A stretch of 64,000 bases of DNA from Candidatus Acidiferrales bacterium (GCA_963776365.1 CAVZMQ010000004.1:2054-66053), one strand, 5' to 3'. Shown: positions 5,978 through 41,462, numbered from the stretch's first letter. Numbers and translations are program-made. The notes: a model not told the origin generated them from the letters alone.

Positions 5978-7439
5978 TTAGGCAGCTTGAGCTTCGACAA
6001 CGCGAAATCCAAGCTTGGTGGCTTTCCACTTGAGCTGCTTGATCTGTAGTTGGCGGTGTTGAGCTTGGTAGAGTAGCGCTCCTTTGTCCACGTATTTCAT
6101 TCCGTAGCGCAGCATGCGGTAGACCAAGCGGGCCAGTTTGGCGGCCATGGCCTTGATCGCGATGGGGCCACCCAGCTTGGTCCTTAGACGTCGGAACTGT
6201 GCTCCCAGATAGGTATTGCTTAACCGCAAGCTGCTGGCCGCCATCTTTAAAGCGATGGTCACCCTGTTGTTGGTTCGCAGCCGCCCTTTTCCAATGATCC
6301 GGTCACCACTGATGCGATTGTCCGGGCACAGGCGCAACCAGGAAACAAAATGGTCCTCGGTTTTCCATTTGCTCATATCCCATCCCGCTTCGCTAAGGAT
6401 GGTGGTCGCGGTCATGACATCGATGCTGTCGATCCGGGTCAGGTCCGTACCGCTCATGCGAAACAACCCTTCCCGCAAGTCGAACTGTGGCGCATTCCCC
6501 TTCTTCTTCCTGCGTCGTCCCTTGCGCTTTTCTTCCGGCAAAGGTGCACTTTGGCTCCGATTCTCTCGCTGCTGGAGATACTGCTGCGAGTTGGTGATCG
6601 CACTCGGCCATCTGCTTTTGACAAAACTCGTAACCATCCTGTTCCTGCTTCAGCACAAACAGCAAATCTAGTTGCCAGTTGCCTTCCAGACTTTGCGCGA
6701 TCTGCTCCTCGCTGGCTTTCACCCGAAGATCTCGCAGTGCCGCCAGCTTATGGGGATCGCGTTCGCCTTTCAGAATGGCCTTAATGATCGCTTGTCCGGT
6801 CATTCCGCTCACATCGCTCAATACATTGGCCAGCTGAATATTCATCTGCGTCAGCGCCTTCTGCATCCGCTGGATGTGTCGGCCCGCACTGCGCACTAGA
6901 TCATTCCGTTGCCGCCAGTAAGTCCGCATCATGCGAATCTCCTGCGACGGTCGAAACGAATTTCGCAACAATCCATAAGTGTGCAGCTTCATCAGCCACT
7001 GACTCTCCTGTACGTCGCTTTTGCGCCCGGGCAGATTCTTCGTGTCTCGGGCATTCACCAGGTACACTTCTAAACCTGCTTGCTCCAGAATGTCGTATAC
7101 GGCGACCCAATAGACTCCAGTGGATTGCATCGCCACGGTCTGGATCCGGCATTGCTTGAGCCACTCGGCCATCGCTTGCAATTCCCCAGTGGTGCACCCG
7201 AATCGTCGCACCGGTTGGCTATCGCGTGTCGACGGTACCGCTACGTAGTGGGATTCGTTGCCGATATCGATGCCTGCGGCATCGGGGTGCACGACCTCCA
7301 GGCTGAGGTCTTGGCTCTGAATCTTGCGCGTCAGCTCCCGTCGTTGCTTGCGGTTCATTTCCTCCCAGTGGTGTGTTCGCGGTTTAGTTATTTTCTCGGT
7401 TTTCTCCTGTGGTTTGGGTTTCATGCTAACCTTCTCCAT
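5978..7439 (-). pseudogene. IS110 family transposase with one frameshift near 6588
   Basis: N-terminal DEDD domain (AAGIDIG, MQSTGVYW, KSDVQES) in ORF 6393-7439; C-terminal IS110 domain (SWLRLCP...ISG, AMAAKLARLVY) in ORF 5978-6637; one extra base at DHQL/QQYL. Confidence 0.9.
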
Positions 7440-31935: not shown

Positions 31936-32455
31936 CGGGGACTCCTCGTTTTGTCGACATGCCGAGGGGAACGGCACCTCTCCCTGAGATCGTTGATCGA
32001 CACTAGCAGGAATGCCACGGATGGTGTTATCTCGCGTGGTACGATGCAGCATTGAATTCCGTTCGTAAATTTCATTGGGGAGTCGCCCTCACGGTTCCAG
32101 AGATTTCACCGCCAAGCGAAGAGTAGTTACACACCGACACTCTGGTCCAATACTTCCTGCGATTGGCCCTATAACTCGCGGTTATAGGCCGGGTGGGCAC
32201 GAAAAACGGCCCCGCTGACTTCCGAAGGGAAAGTGGAGCGGGTAAGATGGAAGGAGCGGAATTGCGCCTAAAGTGTCGAGCTACGTCGGTTGGTCATGGA
32301 AGATCAGGCGTTCTGGGTCAGACAGGGGTTGAGACGACACGGCCACGATTTATAGCTCGTTTTGATGCTGCGTCACGACAAGCCCCGGCAAACTTTCCGT
32401 TTCCGAACGGCAACGCAAGGCTAAGGAAATCATCGAAGCCAGCGGGGCGGATACC

Positions 32456-33508
32456 GTGGAGTACTTCAACAAAGTCGTACGGTCCAACCACGGTGTCACC
32501 TTCCGCGAGCAAGCGATTACTTGGCTAGCACAAATGCAGGATCGTAAACGTAAGCCCGTGGCTCCTTCGACGCTTGGTATTTGGGAAAGTGCGTTGAGAA
32601 ACTGGCTCAATCCAAACATCGGAGACATTCCGCTTGAATCCATCGGCAATCTCGCGCTGAAGAATCTTGGTGCAACGATGGTCAAAGGTGGGCTGGGAGC
32701 GTCGGCGATTAGGTCATACACAAACGCGGTGAAAATGGTTGTAGCATCGGCGGTCAATGAAGAAGGGGATGCGCTGTACCCCCGGAAATGGAATCACGAC
32801 TTCATTGATTTACCAGAAGACAAGAAACAAAGACAACCAAACTTCACTTCCGAAGTAGTGACCGGGATCATCGCCGCGTCACAGAAAGAGCAGATGTCGG
32901 TGTTCTATGTACTCTGTGCTGCTGGCGGATTGCGATTTGGAGAAGCCCTGGGGATCGACATCGGAAACATTTCCCCCGACTGCTCAACGATCAAAATTGA
33001 CCAGAAGGCATGGAGGGGCCAGGTACATACCTTCCTGAAGAGTGATGCCGCCAAGCGGGAGATTGACTTGCACTCTACGGTTGCGGCGATCCTCAAGGAG
33101 TGCATCGGCCAGCGGGAGTCTGGACTGTTGTTCTGTTCCAGTACCGGCAAGCAACTCTGGCAGACAAACCTCCTACGTCGGTCCTTGCACCCTATTCTCA
33201 AAGATCTAGGCTGGGAAGATCCTGAGAGTGGATGCAAAAAGACTGGCGCTCATGCCTTCCGACGCTTCCGTTTAACATGGCTTCGGAAGAACGATGTCCC
33301 GAAAGACTTGGAACATTTCTGGATGGGCCACGAGGACGAAGAGATCGGGGACATCTACTCCAAGTTGAAACAGGACGTTGCTTTCCGCAGAAAAGTGGTG
33401 GAAAGGATTGGTTTGGGCTTCGAACTTCCGTCCAAAAAGGTCGTTGTTGGATCGAATGGACCGAAAATCGAAGTTGGTGATGTCGAATTGTTGGCTGTAA
33501 ACGCTTGA
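32456..33508 (+). CDS. Tyrosine integrase; N-terminal arm-binding region decayed
   Basis: GLRFGEALG, HAFRRFR, WMGH, DIYS; the frame extends only ~27 codons upstream before a TGA. Confidence 0.88.
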   Translation: MEYFNKVVRSNHGVTFREQAITWLAQMQDRKRKPVAPSTLGIWESALRNWLNPNIGDIPLESIGNLALKNLGATMVKGGLGASAIRSYTNAVKMVVASAVNEEGDALYPRKWNHDFIDLPEDKKQRQPNFTSEVVTGIIAASQKEQMSVFYVLCAAGGLRFGEALGIDIGNISPDCSTIKIDQKAWRGQVHTFLKSDAAKREIDLHSTVAAILKECIGQRESGLLFCSSTGKQLWQTNLLRRSLHPILKDLGWEDPESGCKKTGAHAFRRFRLTWLRKNDVPKDLEHFWMGHEDEEIGDIYSKLKQDVAFRRKVVERIGLGFELPSKKVVVGSNGPKIEVGDVELLAVNA

Positions 33509-33631: not shown

Positions 33632-34681
33632 TTACGCTGCTTTTTCTGCTGCACTATTTTGGTGCAATTTCGGGACATTCGGTACAACAGTCTCGCTGGC
33701 TTCTGGAAGATTGAAGCCATACCCTACTCGCTCAGCCTCTTTGAGGCGTGTCTCAAGTTCCTCGTGAAGGTGTGAGTAGAGTTCAGACATTGTTTGCGGA
33801 CGGTGTGCCATCCAGAAGTTGTTTATGTCTTCCAGGCAGCGGCCACCCCGCAACCATGTCTTACGGAACCGCTTGAATGCGTGCCAACCCATTCCTTCCT
33901 CATCGAGCCCCATTTCACTGAGGCGAGGCGTAAGCCAGCGGTCCGCCAGATTGCCGTAAAGATGAGGAGTTCCGCTTGCTGTGTGGAACAGGAGCCCCGT
34001 CTTCTCAGCCGTATAACGTCGCAGGTACTCTGCGATGTCTGGATGCAAGTCAATCTGCCTCCTCGCAGCGTCAGTCTTGAGATAACTAACGATACGAGCA
34101 GAATCCTTCTCGACTTGCTGCTCAACCCTTATGGTTTTGAAATCATTCGTGAATTGCCGGGTTCCGACCGCCAACGCTTCAGAAATTCTCATCCCAGTTG
34201 CCGCGAGCAGCACATATAACGCCTGTTCCTGACCGCTGCTAGACAGAATGAGTTCTGAAATTGTGTCCGCTTTGAGCGATGGACGTTTCTGTTCCGAATG
34301 CACTACCACAGGCAAGTCCATTACCTCAGCGTCCCATGTTCTCTTATGGACAGGCTCACCGTTCGGGTGCTTCAACGACTCCACCACCTGTTTAACATGT
34401 TCGATGTACTTGTTTACAGTTCGCGGTTTGAGTTTCGCAGAAGACATTTTGTCAATCAACGGCCTCACCGAGAGATTGTCCACTTGCCCGACAGGAATAT
34501 CGCCAATAGCAGGGAGAATCCATTTGTCCATCGCGCCCTGAATGGAGACTGCATAACTCCGTCGGATGGGCTTGCGTTTGCGGTTTTGCAATTGCTTCAG
34601 CCACACTTCTGATTGTTCACGGAACGTAATCTCACCTGATTTTGGTTGAACAACTTTGTTGAAATATTCAGGAGAGTCCAC
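33632..34681 (-). CDS. Tyrosine integrase related to 32456-33508, 5' truncated
   Basis: EYFNKVV...TFREQ shared with the other integrase; GMRISEAL, HAFKRFR, WMAH, ELYS. Confidence 0.88.
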   Translation of the reverse strand: MDSPEYFNKVVQPKSGEITFREQSEVWLKQLQNRKRKPIRRSYAVSIQGAMDKWILPAIGDIPVGQVDNLSVRPLIDKMSSAKLKPRTVNKYIEHVKQVVESLKHPNGEPVHKRTWDAEVMDLPVVVHSEQKRPSLKADTISELILSSSGQEQALYVLLAATGMRISEALAVGTRQFTNDFKTIRVEQQVEKDSARIVSYLKTDAARRQIDLHPDIAEYLRRYTAEKTGLLFHTASGTPHLYGNLADRWLTPRLSEMGLDEEGMGWHAFKRFRKTWLRGGRCLEDINNFWMAHRPQTMSELYSHLHEELETRLKEAERVGYGFNLPEASETVVPNVPKLHQNSAAEKAA

Positions 34682-35886: not shown

Positions 35887-36038
35887 TCAATTGCACTGGA
35901 AAGGGATAGTAGCAGAAAACATTCTCAACTCCCGATTTGTCGCGTTACCGGACATGTGGCTACCAGAACTTGACCTTACCGGTAAGCGCTAACCGGGACT
36001 TTGGAGCAAAAATATGTTATTCAGGTCACCGGGTAGTG

Positions 36039-36467: not shown

Positions 36468-36589
36468 CGGGAGAACGAGCGAGTCCTACGCAGTTTGTTC
36501 CAATAACTCCTGGTTTGTCGATTATTACCGGCCAATTCTTTGAATCACACCCGTAAAAGCTGTAGGCGAGAAGGGTTATTCTCTTTCAG

Positions 36590-37204
36590 TTGGATTTTGG
36601 TCAGGAGGAAGGAGCTCCGCTTCCGGCTCAGATCTTGGCAGGTCAAGCCGGGGCAGAGCTCCAAGGAAGTACGATTCTGTTTATCCCACTTTGCGTCCCG
36701 CCTCACAAGCTCGAAACGGATTGGGCCGCGAGCTGCGCCGAAGTCATCTTGCGGCGATGCCCGGTTTGCGAGCGCGATTCGATCATCGGCCATGGACACC
36801 GCCGCAAACAGGCGCACGATGAACACCACGATTGGATCGGGATCCGGCGCGGTTGCTGTCCCGGTTGCAAGAAAACCTTCACCTTTCTCCCGCTGCTTTC
36901 TCTCCCCTACACGCACTACAGTTTGCTGGCACGCTGTCAGGCCTTGTGGCGGCGCTTTGTGGAGCACTGCTCCTGGGAAGAAGCAACGCCTCCGCTCAAA
37001 GACCCTAACCGCGTGCCTGATTCCTCCACACTTCGCCGCTGGGCCCACGGCCTGGACCGCTCCCAACCGGCACTTTCCTTTCTCCATCAAACGCTCGCCT
37101 CCGTAGCTCACTGGCTGGCGCGCGGTGATCCAGCCGATCACCAAGCGGGGCTTTTGTCTCAGCTGACTCCGGTTCTGCAAATTCTCTGGCCCCTGCGTCT
37201 CTGA
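36590..37204 (+). CDS. DUF6431-like zinc-ribbon/HTH protein (start uncertain)
   Basis: CPVC...GHG.R.K...IRRG.CP.C.KTFT.LP....PY..Y; STLRRW. Confidence 0.7.
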   Translation: MDFGQEEGAPLPAQILAGQAGAELQGSTILFIPLCVPPHKLETDWAASCAEVILRRCPVCERDSIIGHGHRRKQAHDEHHDWIGIRRGCCPGCKKTFTFLPLLSLPYTHYSLLARCQALWRRFVEHCSWEEATPPLKDPNRVPDSSTLRRWAHGLDRSQPALSFLHQTLASVAHWLARGDPADHQAGLLSQLTPVLQILWPLRL

Positions 37205-37237
37205 GAAAATTTCTCCAACCACCATCCTTGCCTGGGA

Positions 37238-38278
37238 ATGCTGTCCACCTTCTCCTACGTTGACTTCCAGAGGCAAAACTGCGCCGTGGGCGAGGACGTC
37301 GAAAAACTGAAACAGCGTCTTTCGCTGCTCGATTATCTGCGGCAGCAGAACTGGGTCGCCCGGCCTGCCACTCACGGCCCCGAGTTCGTCGGACTTTGTC
37401 CCCTGCATCCGGAAACCCAGCCTTCGTTCTATGTCAATGCCCACAAAAATCTCTTCTACTGTCACGGTTGCGGCCAGGGCGGCGATCTCATTCGCTTTGT
37501 CCAGTTGTCCCGCCAGCTATCCTTCCGCCAAAGTCTCGCCTACCTCGAGCAGCAAAGCGCTCCTCCCACCGACCCTGCCGCCGTGCTCGAGCAAGCTGCC
37601 ACTTTTTATCAACAGCAACTCGATCGCTACCCCGAGGCACGGCGCTATCTGGAGCAACGAGGACTGCGCGATCCTGTCCTGCTCCAAGAACTGCGGATCG
37701 GGTATGCCCCTGGGGGGAGCTTGCGCCGTCATCTCGCGGCTCGAGGCTACTCTTGCGAGCTCCTACGACGTCTCGGCCTGCTCAATTCGCAGGGTCACGA
37801 TGCCTTCTACCGGCGCGTCATCTTCCCGTGCTGCCAAGGCGGACGCGTCGTCAACCTCTACGGCCGCAGTGTCGCGGCCGCCTTTGCCCATCGATTCCTA
37901 CCCGGCTCCAAGGGCGGCTTGTTCGCCTGGGAATCGGTTCGCCAGTTTCCCGCGGTGATTCTGGTTGAAGGTCTGTTCGATCTTGCGGTGTTGTGGCAGG
38001 CTGGTTTTCGCCACGCCACCTGTTCGTTAGGCACTCATCTCAGCGCTGAACAGTTTCAACAGCTGTGCGATCGTCCACGCACGGTTTATCTCATCTTCGA
38101 TGTCGACGCCAACGGCAGCGGACAACAAGCCTCGCGGCGGCTAGCACCACGTCTGCGCGCACAAGGCATCTCCACTCGTCGCGTCTTCCTGCCCGATGGC
38201 CACGATCCGAACTCCTTCTTCGTCCAGGGCGGTGATGCGGGACAGTTTCAAGCTCTCCTGGAGGCTGCTCCGCCATGA
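37238..38278 (+). CDS. DnaG-like primase (CHC2 zinc finger + TOPRIM), no helicase-binding domain
   Basis: CPLH.ET.PSF...FYCHGC..GGDLI; RRVIFP; LVEGLFD; FDVDANGSG; PDGHDPN. Confidence 0.9.
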   Translation: MLSTFSYVDFQRQNCAVGEDVEKLKQRLSLLDYLRQQNWVARPATHGPEFVGLCPLHPETQPSFYVNAHKNLFYCHGCGQGGDLIRFVQLSRQLSFRQSLAYLEQQSAPPTDPAAVLEQAATFYQQQLDRYPEARRYLEQRGLRDPVLLQELRIGYAPGGSLRRHLAARGYSCELLRRLGLLNSQGHDAFYRRVIFPCCQGGRVVNLYGRSVAAAFAHRFLPGSKGGLFAWESVRQFPAVILVEGLFDLAVLWQAGFRHATCSLGTHLSAEQFQQLCDRPRTVYLIFDVDANGSGQQASRRLAPRLRAQGISTRRVFLPDGHDPNSFFVQGGDAGQFQALLEAAPP

Positions 38279-39321
38279 AGTTCTGCGTGATCTACCAGCA
38301 GACCCCCCACAACGCACATAGTCCAGTTCGTGTCGTCGAGCAGAGCACCGGTCAGGGAGTTGGCTGGATCAATCGTTATCTGGACCGCGAATATGTCCGC
38401 CGCCTAGCGAACACCACCCTGCGCACCTTCGCTTACAACCTGCTGCACTTTGTTCGCTGGTGGGAGAGTGTTCATCACACCGGCGACATCCGGGGAGGTG
38501 ACCTTACCGAGTCCACGCTCCTGGACTATGTGCGCTTCCAGTCCAGCCAACAATCGCGGGGTTCCCCTTCGACCATTAATGACCGCGTGGCCGTCGCCGA
38601 GCGCGCCATCCGCAACGAGTTCCCCAATGCTCCCTGCCAAATCGCCCGCGGTTTTCATCAAGCTTTTTTGCGGCGAACGCCAATGGGGCTCGGCCGGCGG
38701 CAAGTAGCGATGAGTCGGTTGCGAGTGAAAGTGCCCAAACGCAACATCGTGCCACTGTCGGTAGATGAAGTAGCACGCTTCTGGTCCAGTTTCAGCTCTT
38801 CACGGGACTTGGCCATCGTGGGCTTGATGCTATTGCAAGGGCTCCGGTCCGCCGAAGTATTAGCTTTGAATCGCGATGACGCGTTGCTCTCCGAAGCACA
38901 GCTTCGTGTCCGTGGCAAAGGCAATAAATTTCGCTTCCTGCCGCTGGCGCCGGAAACGGTGCAACTACTCGAACACTACCTGCGCCTGGAACGGCCCAAT
39001 CCCTGCTCCGCCGCGCTCTTCGTCTCAATCAAAGGCCACGCGCGCGGACGGCGCATGACCGTTGCGGGATTACGTTCCTTATTCCGCTACCATCGTCAGG
39101 CCACCGGCGTCCAGCTCGCCAATCCGCATCGATTTCGACACACCTTTGCTTCCGACATGATCCGTGCCGGTATGAGTCTGCCCGCGCTCATGCAGTTGAT
39201 GGGTCACGCTGATATCCAAACTACGCTGCTCTACGTGCAGGTCACCCCACAAGACGTCTACCTTCAGTACGCACGTGCCGTGGCACAGCACATCCGCCCC
39301 CTTCCGGTGACCTCCTCATGA
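38275..39321 (+). CDS. Tyrosine recombinase A
   Basis: GLRSAE, VRGKG, HRFRH, LMGH, TLLY; ATGA overlap with the primase. Confidence 0.93.
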   Translation: MKFCVIYQQTPHNAHSPVRVVEQSTGQGVGWINRYLDREYVRRLANTTLRTFAYNLLHFVRWWESVHHTGDIRGGDLTESTLLDYVRFQSSQQSRGSPSTINDRVAVAERAIRNEFPNAPCQIARGFHQAFLRRTPMGLGRRQVAMSRLRVKVPKRNIVPLSVDEVARFWSSFSSSRDLAIVGLMLLQGLRSAEVLALNRDDALLSEAQLRVRGKGNKFRFLPLAPETVQLLEHYLRLERPNPCSAALFVSIKGHARGRRMTVAGLRSLFRYHRQATGVQLANPHRFRHTFASDMIRAGMSLPALMQLMGHADIQTTLLYVQVTPQDVYLQYARAVAQHIRPLPVTSS

Positions 39322-40457
39322 ACCGTGCGCGACGCCCTCCACTGCAACATTCTCTGGCGCCGGTCTTCGACCGCGCCGTCGATTCCCTCAGCACTGCACT
39401 CAACCCCGAAACCACTCGTCACCACCGTGGGACTGCCCGCAACTTTCTGACCTATCTCGGCGCTGATCATCCGGAGGTGCAGCACCTGGACCAGCTACGC
39501 CGTGAACCCCACATCCTCGGTTGGATGTCCTGCCTGCACTCGCAAGCGTCGCCGCTATCAACCGCGTCCTATATCGGCCGGCTTATCGCTCTACGGTCCA
39601 TCTTCAACGAGCTGGCTTGGACCGAACAGCTTTCTGAACTCGCTCATCTGATCCGCCGCGTGGACATTCCGCGGCCGCCGCAAAGACTTCCACGGCCGCT
39701 CACGGCAGAGCAGGATCAACTCCTGCAACAGGAGTTCCGCTTGCGCAATGATCTGGGCGGCAACGTCTTTTTGTTGATTCGCCACACCGGCATGCGTATC
39801 GGTGAGTGTGCCGATCTGTCCTCCGACTGCCTTCGCTCCACCGGCCCAAGTCAATGGGCGATTCATGTGCCGCTCGGCAAACTTAAAACGGAACGTATGG
39901 TCCCCGTAGATCTCTTTGTGTGCGAACTCGTCCAACGCCTCCGCTTCTTTCGTTTTCTTGATCCGCTGCCTGCCGATGGACGGCTCCTGGCTCGTCCGGG
40001 CGCCAAAGACACGCTCCTTCGTCATTTTCGTGATTACTTGCATCAAGTCTGCCATTCACTTGGCCTTTCCACCCGCATCGTCCCACATCAGCTTCGCCAC
40101 ACCTATGCCACGGAGATGCTTCGAGCCGGTGTTGGCTTTCCCGCGGTAATGAAATTACTCGGGCACACCTCTCCCGAGATGACCATGCAATATCTGGATG
40201 TGACGTTGAATGATCTCCAGCGAGCATTCGAGCTGGCTCGCTCAAAACCGCGGCATCTTGTTCCGCAACCCAGGGTCTCGTCTGCCCCACATCGAGAGGG
40301 CCTCGATGGAGTGATCGATTCTTTGCTCGCCGCTCAACATGTACTAGAGATGTTCCGCCGCACGCTGCCAAAAGACACGACTCGCAATCGCCTCAATCGC
40401 CTCTCCAACCGCCTCACCAAAATCCTTATCGAAGCACGCGACCTTGTGACGCCCTGA
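39318..40457 (+). CDS. Tyrosine recombinase B
   Basis: GMRIGE, GKLK, HQLRH, LLGH, TMQY; ATGA overlap with recombinase A. Confidence 0.93.
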   Translation: MNRARRPPLQHSLAPVFDRAVDSLSTALNPETTRHHRGTARNFLTYLGADHPEVQHLDQLRREPHILGWMSCLHSQASPLSTASYIGRLIALRSIFNELAWTEQLSELAHLIRRVDIPRPPQRLPRPLTAEQDQLLQQEFRLRNDLGGNVFLLIRHTGMRIGECADLSSDCLRSTGPSQWAIHVPLGKLKTERMVPVDLFVCELVQRLRFFRFLDPLPADGRLLARPGAKDTLLRHFRDYLHQVCHSLGLSTRIVPHQLRHTYATEMLRAGVGFPAVMKLLGHTSPEMTMQYLDVTLNDLQRAFELARSKPRHLVPQPRVSSAPHREGLDGVIDSLLAAQHVLEMFRRTLPKDTTRNRLNRLSNRLTKILIEARDLVTP

Positions 40458-40636
40458 GAACGGGCAGAGATTGGCCGGTAATGTCGGGTTACCGGAAATG
40501 TTCCCCATAGTACCGGTCTACTTTAAAGGTGAGCGCGCTTACAAGGCACCACAACATTGGACTCCTGACGATATACTGTGGGCAGCTTCCTTCCTTTCTT
40601 GAAACTCATACGTGTTCATGAGCAAAAAGGTGCACG

Positions 40637-41263: not shown

Positions 41264-41462
41264 GTGCCAAAGTTTATCGCGCTGTTCTTGCTCCTGCGTC
41301 TAGGTCCCGGTTAGTCGCCTAATCGGTAAAGTCAAGAGCTGGGAACCAAGTTACCGATTTCGTCGTTTTTACCAGATGGGACCGTTCGGGTGTAGACTCT
41401 GCCGTGTCTTTTGCTAGAAGGTGTTATGTCGAATTCGCTATCTCGGTAAGGGAGCGTGTTGA

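Follow-up and report, generated by a model that had tools for sequence, protein, structure and literature searches.

The stretch of DNA analysed here, 64,000 nt of Candidatus Acidiferrales bacterium (GCA_963776365.1, CAVZMQ010000004.1:2054-66053; hereafter the window), contains at positions 36517-40486 a 3,970-bp mobile unit with four intact, co-oriented genes between perfect 13-bp inverted repeats (Table 1). In order, the genes encode a DUF6431 zinc-ribbon protein, a short DnaG-type primase, tyrosine recombinase A and tyrosine recombinase B. We regard the unit, with very little doubt, as a real mobile element. The four genes had been proposed in a first-pass annotation of the window and were borne out by an open reading frame (ORF) and Pfam scan: all four ORFs are intact in the window copy, ATGA stop/start overlaps at 38275 and 39318 join the primase, recombinase A and recombinase B genes, and both recombinases keep the catalytic set R...K...HxxR...H...Y (GLRSAE, GKGNK, HRFRH, GHAD and LLY in A; GMRIGE, GKLKTE, HQLRH, GHTS and MQY in B). 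No further ORF was found in the unit, either between or after the recombinases. The G+C content of the element is 0.59-0.62, compared with about 0.52-0.55 in its surroundings.

The inverted repeats that had been proposed to bound the element are real and perfect, each being the exact reverse complement of the other, but the true unit is slightly larger than the interval from repeat to repeat that was first assigned. Such a 13-bp inverted pair is expected by chance about 0.2 times per 5 kb; we consider it significant because 54 other complete copies have the repeats in the same two places. Across copies, the true ends consist of GYCG(WTT) followed by the repeat on the left and of the repeat followed by GYC(G) on the right, which in the window reads GTCGATT plus repeat and repeat plus GTCG. 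The boundaries were set there because the identity between otherwise 100% identical copies breaks at these points and because several short-read contigs start at GYCG. Three identical miniature copies agree as far as GCCG at the left end and GCC at the right end and differ beyond, six short-read contigs start exactly at GYCG(WTT)ATTACC..., and one contig of 3,971 bp is exactly one unit.

Table 1 Features of the element and of the target-like sites near it in the window
Feature	Position	Strand	Basis
Left target arm (B), outside the element, AATAACTCCTGGTTT	36502-36516	+	Flank logo; otherwise identical copies differ here
Left terminus, 7-bp spacer GTCGATT	36517-36523	+	Contig starts at GYCG; 7-mer constant per subfamily; GYCG read as core common to the target
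Left inverted repeat, putative recombinase-binding arm C', ATTACCGGCCAAT	36524-36536	+	Kept in 54 complete copies with compensatory variants
Conserved non-coding leader	36537-36748	+	Blocks at least 95% conserved; hairpin 36611-36662 inside
DUF6431 zinc-ribbon protein, 151 residues	36749-37204 (longer frame from 36590)	+	Pfam PF20020, E 1.7e-9
Short DnaG-type primase, 346 residues (330 from GTG at 37286)	37238-38278	+	Pfam and NCBIfam matches
Tyrosine recombinase A, 348 residues	38275-39321	+	Pfam Phage_integrase; TnpA orthologue
Tyrosine recombinase B, 379 residues	39318-40457	+	Pfam Phage_integrase; TnpB orthologue
Right inverted repeat, arm C, ATTGGCCGGTAAT	40470-40482	+	Reverse complement of left repeat; recurs in complete copies
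GTCG core, right junction	40483-40486	+	Direct repeat of 36517-36520; GYC matches left junction in nearly all copies
Right target arm (B'), outside the element, GGTTACCGGAAATGT	40487-40501	+	Flank logo gctAacCGGaaat
Unoccupied target-like site, CTCAACTCCCGATTT-GTCG-CGTTACCGGACATGT	35924-35957	+	28.4 bits, best target-model match in the genome
Unoccupied target-like site, TCTAGGTCCCGGTTA-GTCG-CCTAATCGGTAAAGT	41299-41332	+	26.9 bits, third best in the genome

A family of complete elements in other genomes

Homologues of the primase number more than 6,000 at E values below 1e-10, and hundreds of them are 82-97% identical to it, mostly on soil metagenome contigs of 2-6 kb; a 97%-identical primase occurs in another sample. 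In a scan of species-representative genomes, 80 loci were found, nearly all in metagenome-assembled genomes (MAGs) of Acidobacteriota, with hosts among the Terriglobales, Acidoferrales, Sulfotelmatobacter and Bryobacteraceae; one contig of 6.6 Mb carries at least seven copies. Outside the Acidobacteriota, three loci lie in one Acidimicrobiia MAG and one in a Methylomirabilota MAG. These four (L071-L073 and L053) are complete copies with 81-84% primase identity, which reflect either a transfer between phyla or mis-binned contigs. Of 301 genomes sampled across the phylum, 2 had a primase match with an E value below 1e-60; of 151 genomes of the family, 6 had one (4 of 29 genera). This patchy distribution fits horizontal spread, although short-read MAGs tend to lose repeats.

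Complete elements were recovered at 54 of the loci elsewhere, with 3,775-3,969 bp between the repeat ends (3,939-3,969 bp in all but one). The four-gene synteny and both repeat boundaries are conserved among them, none carries cargo, and the primase, which might have proved to lie outside the mobile unit, is always inside it. Variants of the repeats are matched across the two ends (ATAACC/GGTTAT, TTAACC/GGTTAA or GGTTAT, ATTAGC/GCTAAT). The repeated occurrence of the same ends and gene order across genomes agrees with the original proposal of a recombinase-driven mobile element. When the two full copies of the present genome are included, the four frames are intact in 49 of 56 elements. Median ratios of nonsynonymous to synonymous substitution (dN/dS) are 0.16 for DUF6431, 0.19 for the primase, 0.18 for recombinase A and 0.20 for recombinase B, and by this measure all four genes are under purifying selection; the primase and the zinc-ribbon protein are as constrained as the recombinases. 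Full-text literature searches returned no description of the element family or of its combination of a primase with a recombinase pair. This family of ~3.96-kb integrative transposons, patchy in Acidobacteriota and common in some soil Acidobacteria, is apparently new to the literature, and the window copy is an intact, probably active member of it.

Copies and miniatures in the same genome

The bacterium's own assembly (6.78 Mb) was searched for further copies. The second full copy, on contig 9, has four intact frames and is 84% identical to the window copy. A diverged subfamily is represented by two copies (C24:6851-10841 and C25:166337-170326) that are 99.9% identical to each other and share 65-69% nucleotide identity, and 62% primase identity, with the window copy. 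In addition to these full copies, contig 1 carries a deletion derivative in which the first 55 bp are joined to the last 626 bp, there are several solo ends, and at least seven miniatures of about 265 bp retain only the left ~115-130 bp and the right 40-50 bp. Among the miniatures, one set of three shows 100% identity and a further two show 98.9%. Because the three identical miniatures occupy three loci with unrelated flanks, their sequences indicate that the miniatures were mobilised in trans very recently. Base six of the left repeat is C or G, and the base paired with it in the right repeat always switches accordingly: ATTACC.../...GGTAAT is found in the window copy and the miniatures that match it, and the contig 9 copy and its miniatures have ATTAGC.../...GCTAAT.

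The first-pass annotation had taken the intact ORFs of the window copy as a sign of recent arrival. For this copy a recent arrival is not demonstrable, as the nearest relative in the genome is only 84% identical; recent activity is supported by the miniature copies, not by the window copy itself.

Two further observations concern fragments and flanks in this assembly. A 78-bp left-end relic at C1:94169-94246 is 99% identical to the window copy and ends after GGGTTATTCTC. An identical sequence closes C8 and opens C9, and 2.87 kb around it is identical on the three contigs; this relic region, two instances of which lie at contig ends, is probably one locus or an assembly overlap. Separately, a flank of ~110 bp (...CAACCGGAAGTAATCCTGAAAATTACAAATTGAGCGG...) is common to C1:87682-87956, C8:112498-112780 and the left flank of C9:6892, where it borders three different elements, namely two diverged miniatures and, in inverted orientation, the full copy of contig 9. 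The cause is either repeated insertion at a single site in a duplicated region or recombination in which incoming elements replaced resident ends.

The recombinases are orthologues of TnpA and TnpB

The Tn554 family comprises Tn554, Tn558, Tn553/'Tn552-II' and the tnpA-tnpB-DUF6262 modules on Rhodococcus and Mycobacterium plasmids; TnpC (DUF6262) is the third Tn554 gene product and is required for Tn554 transposition. The best annotated relatives of recombinase A are found on such Rhodococcus and Mycobacterium plasmids, where a 360-residue recombinase is followed by a recombinase of 484-564 residues and by a third gene, which is DUF6262 on pBD2 and an unannotated small ORF on the Mycobacterium plasmid. 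Tn558, on a staphylococcal plasmid, has the architecture TnpA-TnpB-TnpC(DUF6262).

Recombinase A is 38% identical over its full length to the TnpA-like protein of Rhodococcus pBD2, 26% to that of pW51A and 24% to that of Tn558, and recombinase B is 34% identical to residues 139-458 of the pBD2 TnpB-like protein. By alignment score, A is closer to the TnpA proteins and B is closer to the TnpB proteins. In the phylogenetic tree, recombinase A is sister to the actinobacterial TnpA proteins (97-98% support), its placement relative to the staphylococcal TnpA branch not being settled by the tree, and recombinase B falls inside a clade with all four TnpB proteins, including that of Tn558 (97-99% support). 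The likeness to Tn554 that had been noted from the sequence is upheld in that identity, score and phylogeny all identify the two recombinases as TnpA and TnpB orthologues, and the recombinase module is very likely Tn554-related. None of the four proteins of the element matched DUF6262, and phmmer searches with TnpC of Tn558 and of pBD2 found nothing. Two defining features of the Tn554 family are absent from the element: TnpC and the transfer of a footprint to the new junction.

A primase without a helicase-binding domain, and its leader

The primase contains the CHC2 zinc finger, DNAG_N and Toprim domains (Pfam). It aligns to Aquifex DnaG 2au3 (E 4e-38) over the zinc-binding and catalytic domains, and to the catalytic core of E. 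coli DnaG; the CHC2 ligands and residues E244, D248, D288, D290 and D323 show no variation within the family, in its distant relatives or in the host DnaG. The protein stops right after Toprim, and the C-terminal domain that binds the helicase (DnaB) is absent. In its CHC2 domain, RNA-polymerase core, Toprim domain and complete set of acidic metal-binding residues, the element primase resembles bacterial DnaG. It differs in length (330-346 residues versus 606 in the host DnaG, with 28% identity), in its score against the NCBIfam DnaG model (174 bits, with a cut-off of 284) and in having RFLPGSK in place of the KYLNSPE motif.

The DUF6431 protein has 1,241 homologues, many of them called at 151-152 residues. 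It starts with TTG here and with ATG at the same place in most homologues, and consists of an invariant CxxC...CxxC zinc ribbon and a helical C-terminal half. Its AlphaFold model (pLDDT 52) is too poor for a fold search or for a comparison with Srap- or TnpC-like proteins.

Between the left repeat and the DUF6431 start lies a leader of ~225 nt, which contains long blocks at least 95% conserved among 39 distinct copies and is more conserved than the synonymous or wobble sites of the genes. The miniatures keep its first ~115 nt. A 52-nt hairpin within the leader is kept in 26 distinct sequences, with 95.8% of cells paired compared with 24-54% in slid controls. Judging from this conservation, the hairpin is a candidate protein-binding or priming site. 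Searches of the leader for a sigma-70-like promoter, a terminator or an Rfam family found none.

The element inserts between the arms of a loose palindrome

Across 57 distinct insertions, the flanks conform only loosely to a consensus, which is ctAAyT.CCGg.Tt to the left of the element and gctAacCGGaaat to its right, and the insertion target is a loose palindrome, AAyTnCCGgnTt-GTCG-gctAacCGGaaat. Information in the left flank is confined to about positions -21 to -8 and is zero beyond about 20 nt from the junctions; because of this drop, we interpret the arms as the preferred target and not as element sequence. We also considered the arms as part of a terminal repeat of ~35 bp. This was rejected because the three 100%-identical miniatures differ there, and it is further disfavoured by the information content of the arms, which is only 0.3-1.5 bits per position.

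A target weight matrix was then built from the 48 insertions in other genomes only (training median, 24.3 bits). The rejoined flanks of the window copy, AATAACTCCTGGTTT-GTCG-GGTTACCGG, score 30.7 bits on this model, and the genome contains 141 sites of at least 14 bits compared with 45 in a reversed-sequence control. The TTACCGG/CCGGTAA motifs that recur in the stretch are these target-like sites. With arm-only matrices, matches peaked at a spacing of 4 nt (300 versus 137 in the control, with 175-248 at other spacings), and the commonest 4-mer between the arms was GTCG, which lies outside the arm-only model. As this peak and its filler show, the target has a single GYCG between two arms, similar to attB, and the arms share TWACCGG with the repeats of the element. 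Strict palindrome patterns had found almost nothing as unoccupied targets, which were found later by the position-weight model. No match crossing a junction was obtained when the rejoined flanks of ten insertions were compared with 40 relatives, because the species are too distant and the region around the window insertion is specific to the strain. The element acts like an integrative element with a preference for certain sites (attP x attB, with the GYCG core in common) and unlike a random transposon.

The 7-mer adjacent to the left repeat is constant within a subfamily (GTCGATT, GTCGAAA, GTCGGAA or GCCGTTT). The right junction is constant only in its first three or four letters, and these match the element type (GTC with GTC, GCC with GCC); the last 3 nt are equal to those of the left junction in 2 of 48 distinct insertions. 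The 7-mer of the element itself is thus always retained at the left junction, and the last 3 nt of the target are retained at the right one. The 3-4-bp GYC(G) found at both junctions would by itself fit an attP/attB core or a short duplication, and we read it as a core that is probably common to attP and attB. In the diverged subfamily, the 7-mer CTCATGG is present at both junctions, between the palindromic flanks GGCCTT and AAGG. This identity points to a 7-bp spacer, and the target rule of this subfamily looks stricter than that of the window subfamily.

A separate arrangement was seen in three metagenome contigs (L111, L114 and L123), in which two right ends stand opposed across the perfect palindrome TTGGCCGGTTAT-GCCGAGCTCGGC-ATAACCGGCCAA. 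They may be tail-to-tail insertions, or a target site composed of two end-like half-sites.

A circular or head-to-tail form exists in relatives

Metagenome contigs (241 million records) were scanned for a right repeat followed by a left repeat within 30 nt. Most of the 24 matches were set aside as unrelated palindromes or two right ends face to face, and three were informative. L117 (4,503 bp) contains a complete four-gene element with 70-75% protein identity to that of the window, followed by the junction TTGGCCGGTTAT-GGCGGAG-ATAACCGGCCAAT and the first 96 nt of a second left end; this junction 7-mer also stands before the left repeat in the first copy. L108, from another sample, has the same junction. 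The third contig, L125 (3,973 bp, 60% primase identity), is a circular permutation of one unit, with the order recombinase A (partial), recombinase B, right repeat-TAGTTTG-left repeat, primase, and when its ends are joined, the recombinase A frame becomes intact, with 362 codons. In these relatives there is a head-to-tail form with a 13-7-13 attP-like core, either as a free circle or as a tandem. The circular intermediate that was originally suggested is supported to this extent, and we consider such an intermediate likely.

The primase pair also accompanies other recombinase modules

A search of 1.8 billion cluster representatives gave 731 primase matches below 1e-30. Short relatives of the primase (~330-390 residues, 33-40% identity) again lie upstream of a recombinase pair or trio. 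At L133:1659-7034 (JGI Ga0136652_1002295), DUF6431 and primase genes are followed by a trio like RitA/B/C of the recombinase-in-trio (RIT) elements (Ricker et al. 2013). The contig has a weak 40-nt inverted repeat (73%) at 72-111 / 7143-7182. At L134:845-4452 (Logan SRR22808074_476707), the order is DUF6431, primase, and RitA-like and RitB-like recombinases at the contig end, and in L136 and L138 the primase is followed by one or two unknown genes and two recombinases.

The present genome has a trio-like element of its own, in three identical copies on the minus strand (C5:84080-87457, C9:318976-322353 and C20:358814-362191). It consists of three overlapping tyrosine recombinase genes, to which the L133 trio is orthologous in order (98-99% support), and both primase and DUF6431 are absent from all three copies. 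As the DUF6431-primase pair is found with a Tn554-type recombinase pair and with a trio, it travels with two recombinase modules. We tentatively propose, as an idea rather less probable than its opposite, that DUF6431 and the short DnaG form a portable priming module, which would have joined at least two multi-recombinase lineages because single-strand exchange needs a new primer for copy-out, with the primase recognising a single-stranded site in the left leader.

A proposed copy-out mechanism with a self-encoded primase

The closest papers describe the strand-biased circularising integrative elements (SEs) of Vibrio, SE-6283 and SE-6945, which move by copy-out via a single-strand bridge; the priming of synthesis is unexplained and a primase is mentioned in neither paper (PMC9345347, PMC10214605). 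The copy-out model for SEs still needs a source of primer or of a 3'-OH (PMC10214605).

The explanation that we favour, with moderate confidence, is that the element as a whole is an autonomous, intact integrative transposon that moves by copy-out with its own primase. The TnpA/TnpB-like proteins, bound to the repeat arms, would exchange a single, defined strand where the spacer begins with GYCG, in excision as well as in integration. DNA synthesis would then complete the intermediate, and not a second strand exchange, as proposed for the Vibrio SEs. The helicase-independent DnaG-type primase would lay the primer for that synthesis, perhaps at the leader hairpin, and the DUF6431 zinc-ribbon protein would serve as an accessory DNA-binding factor replacing TnpC. 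The conserved catalytic residues of the primase and the purifying selection on it suggest that it primes a replicative step, a role to which we give an even chance. The single-strand copy-out mechanism combined with this priming role is the best-fitting reading of the sequences, and we hold it with belief and doubt in about equal measure.

Exchange of the same single strand at the GYCG edge, followed by synthesis, gives exactly the junction pattern observed. Two other schemes do not match the junctions. A two-strand exchange with a 7-bp overlap containing mismatches would produce heteroduplex and predicts that either version appears about half the time per junction, a pattern that was unseen; the footprint rule of Tn554 and the SEs, by which the donor's left spacer appears at the new right junction, is followed by only 2 of 48 insertions. 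GC skew was also considered as a trace of a single-stranded phase and was dropped, as the element is at the 12th percentile of the genome's ORFs and is not an outlier.

Several points, together with this absence of a skew signal, weigh against copy-out with an essential primase. An ordinary two-strand exchange with a short overlap of 3-4 bp also yields the junction asymmetry. The hallmark of Tn554 and the SEs, movement of the left 6-7 bp to the new right junction, is unseen, and the mechanism differs there. The trio element of this genome, with its three primase-less copies, indicates that a primase is not essential for all such elements. Covariation in the leader hairpin is weak (one A-T/G-C pair), and the head-to-tail contigs come from relatives with 60-75% protein identity and could be explained by tandem insertions.

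The junction pattern is compatible with a short overlap also in a different life cycle, which we judge unlikely: a small integrative plasmid with conservative, double-stranded excision and a GYCG overlap, in which the primase acts as an origin initiator like the ColE2 Rep primase and the circle replicates for a while before it reintegrates. The circularly permuted contig of exactly one unit length (L125) speaks for such a plasmid, the leader, more conserved than coding sequence, would offer its hairpin as a possible origin, and a primase without a helicase-binding domain is what a dedicated initiator would look like. However, no helicase, Rep, partition or copy-control function is encoded, nor is there room for one in the unit, and the miniatures have spread with only ~115 nt of leader and half the hairpin. 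Circles are not abundant either, with three head-to-tail contigs among 241 million records, and the overlaps of tyrosine recombinases are normally 6-8 bp.

The primase and DUF6431 could instead stand outside the transposition chemistry, acting in host fork restart at the recombinase-DNA complex, in counter-defence or as non-catalytic assembly factors. We consider this improbable, because the unit, minimal and free of cargo, always contains both genes, their translation is coupled to that of the recombinases (ATGA overlap), and they are as constrained as the recombinases; moreover, the same pair travels with two different recombinase modules, and the invariant catalytic residues argue against a purely structural role. 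It draws some support from the primase-less relatives (Tn554 and Tn558 with TnpC, and the recombinase trio of this genome) and from the occurrence of DnaG-like domains in defence-associated proteins (PADLOC match). That the window copy is an immobile relic or a domesticated cluster with a coincidental inverted repeat is scarcely credible: the genome has no identical second full copy of the subfamily, the nearest being 84% identical, but the window copy has four intact frames and two perfect ends, two loci carry matching C-type miniatures with 98.9% identity, the primase has a 97%-identical counterpart in another sample, and the rejoined flanks are a top-scoring target site.

Neighbourhood of the window copy

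Just upstream of the element, the window contains two more tyrosine recombinase genes, at 32366-33508 (+) and 33632-34681 (-), which the tree groups, with good support, as a separate pair that is not related to TnpA/TnpB. Truncated genes are also present around the element, including fragments encoding a 137-residue Rce1-like protein and a 116-residue response regulator. The upstream neighbourhood looks like a mobile-element hotspot.

Significance and comparison with known systems

The known groups of tyrosine-recombinase transposons are the integrative and conjugative or mobilizable elements (ICE/IME), SE, GInt, RIT and Tn554-related elements, whose relationships have been called 'vague' (PMC10214605). 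What is new here is apparently a Tn554-related two-recombinase transposon in which TnpC is swapped for a zinc-ribbon protein and a helicase-independent DnaG-type primase. A minimal, cargo-free element with an intact primase makes the mechanism of multi-tyrosine-recombinase transposons (Tn554, RIT, SE, GInt) testable, and it suits a test of the need for the primase because all four genes are equally constrained. The same primase pair beside a recombinase trio ties together two families that were only loosely associated before; if the priming module is real, it would be the first direct genetic evidence of a common replicative mechanism in the Tn554, RIT and SE groups. The family also extends Tn554-type elements to a major soil phylum and accounts for many of the orphan contigs of ~4 kb, and of the contig breaks, that soil metagenomes contain. 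With its 13-7-13 site, loose target and very small size, the element is a candidate tool for genetically difficult Acidobacteria.

Like members of the Tn554 family, the element has two adjacent, co-oriented recombinases that are one-to-one orthologues in the same order as TnpA-TnpB, shows site-preferring insertion, and has no conjugation functions; insertion without a target duplication, a trait of the Tn554 family, would be common to both if the GYC(G) at its junctions is the attP/attB core. It differs in carrying DUF6431 and a DnaG-type primase upstream and no TnpC/DUF6262, in its perfect 13-bp terminal inverted repeats and lack of cargo, and in a recombinase B of 379 residues (versus 484-687) without the N-terminal extension of ~130 residues and the C-terminal one of ~100. 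The new right junction does not receive the left 6-7 bp of the donor (2 of 48). The element has Acidobacteriota as hosts, whereas Tn554-related elements have been reported only from Staphylococcus and Enterococcus (PMC10214605).

RIT elements (Van Houdt et al., PMC3414803) resemble it in that they are compact units of several recombinases, poor in cargo and bounded by inverted repeats, and distant relatives of its DUF6431-primase pair sit upstream of a RitA/B/C-like trio or a RitA/B-like pair. In contrast to RIT elements, it has two recombinases and not three, and these fall in the TnpA/TnpB clades, apart from the trio proteins; the trio element in this genome is without a primase.

The SEs share with it a four-gene core that includes two tyrosine recombinases, a preference for particular targets, and short end motifs (imperfectly inverted in SEs) that flank a 6-7-bp spacer in the joined form, and its junction pattern fits the exchange of one specific strand, which is the SE model. 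The SE core, which we compared with the element by its described gene content, is intA-tfp-intB-srap and has no primase. Each time an SE moves, its spacer passes from the left junction to the right one, whereas the element keeps it on the left, and the strand bias demonstrated in SEs is, for the element, what its junctions suggest.

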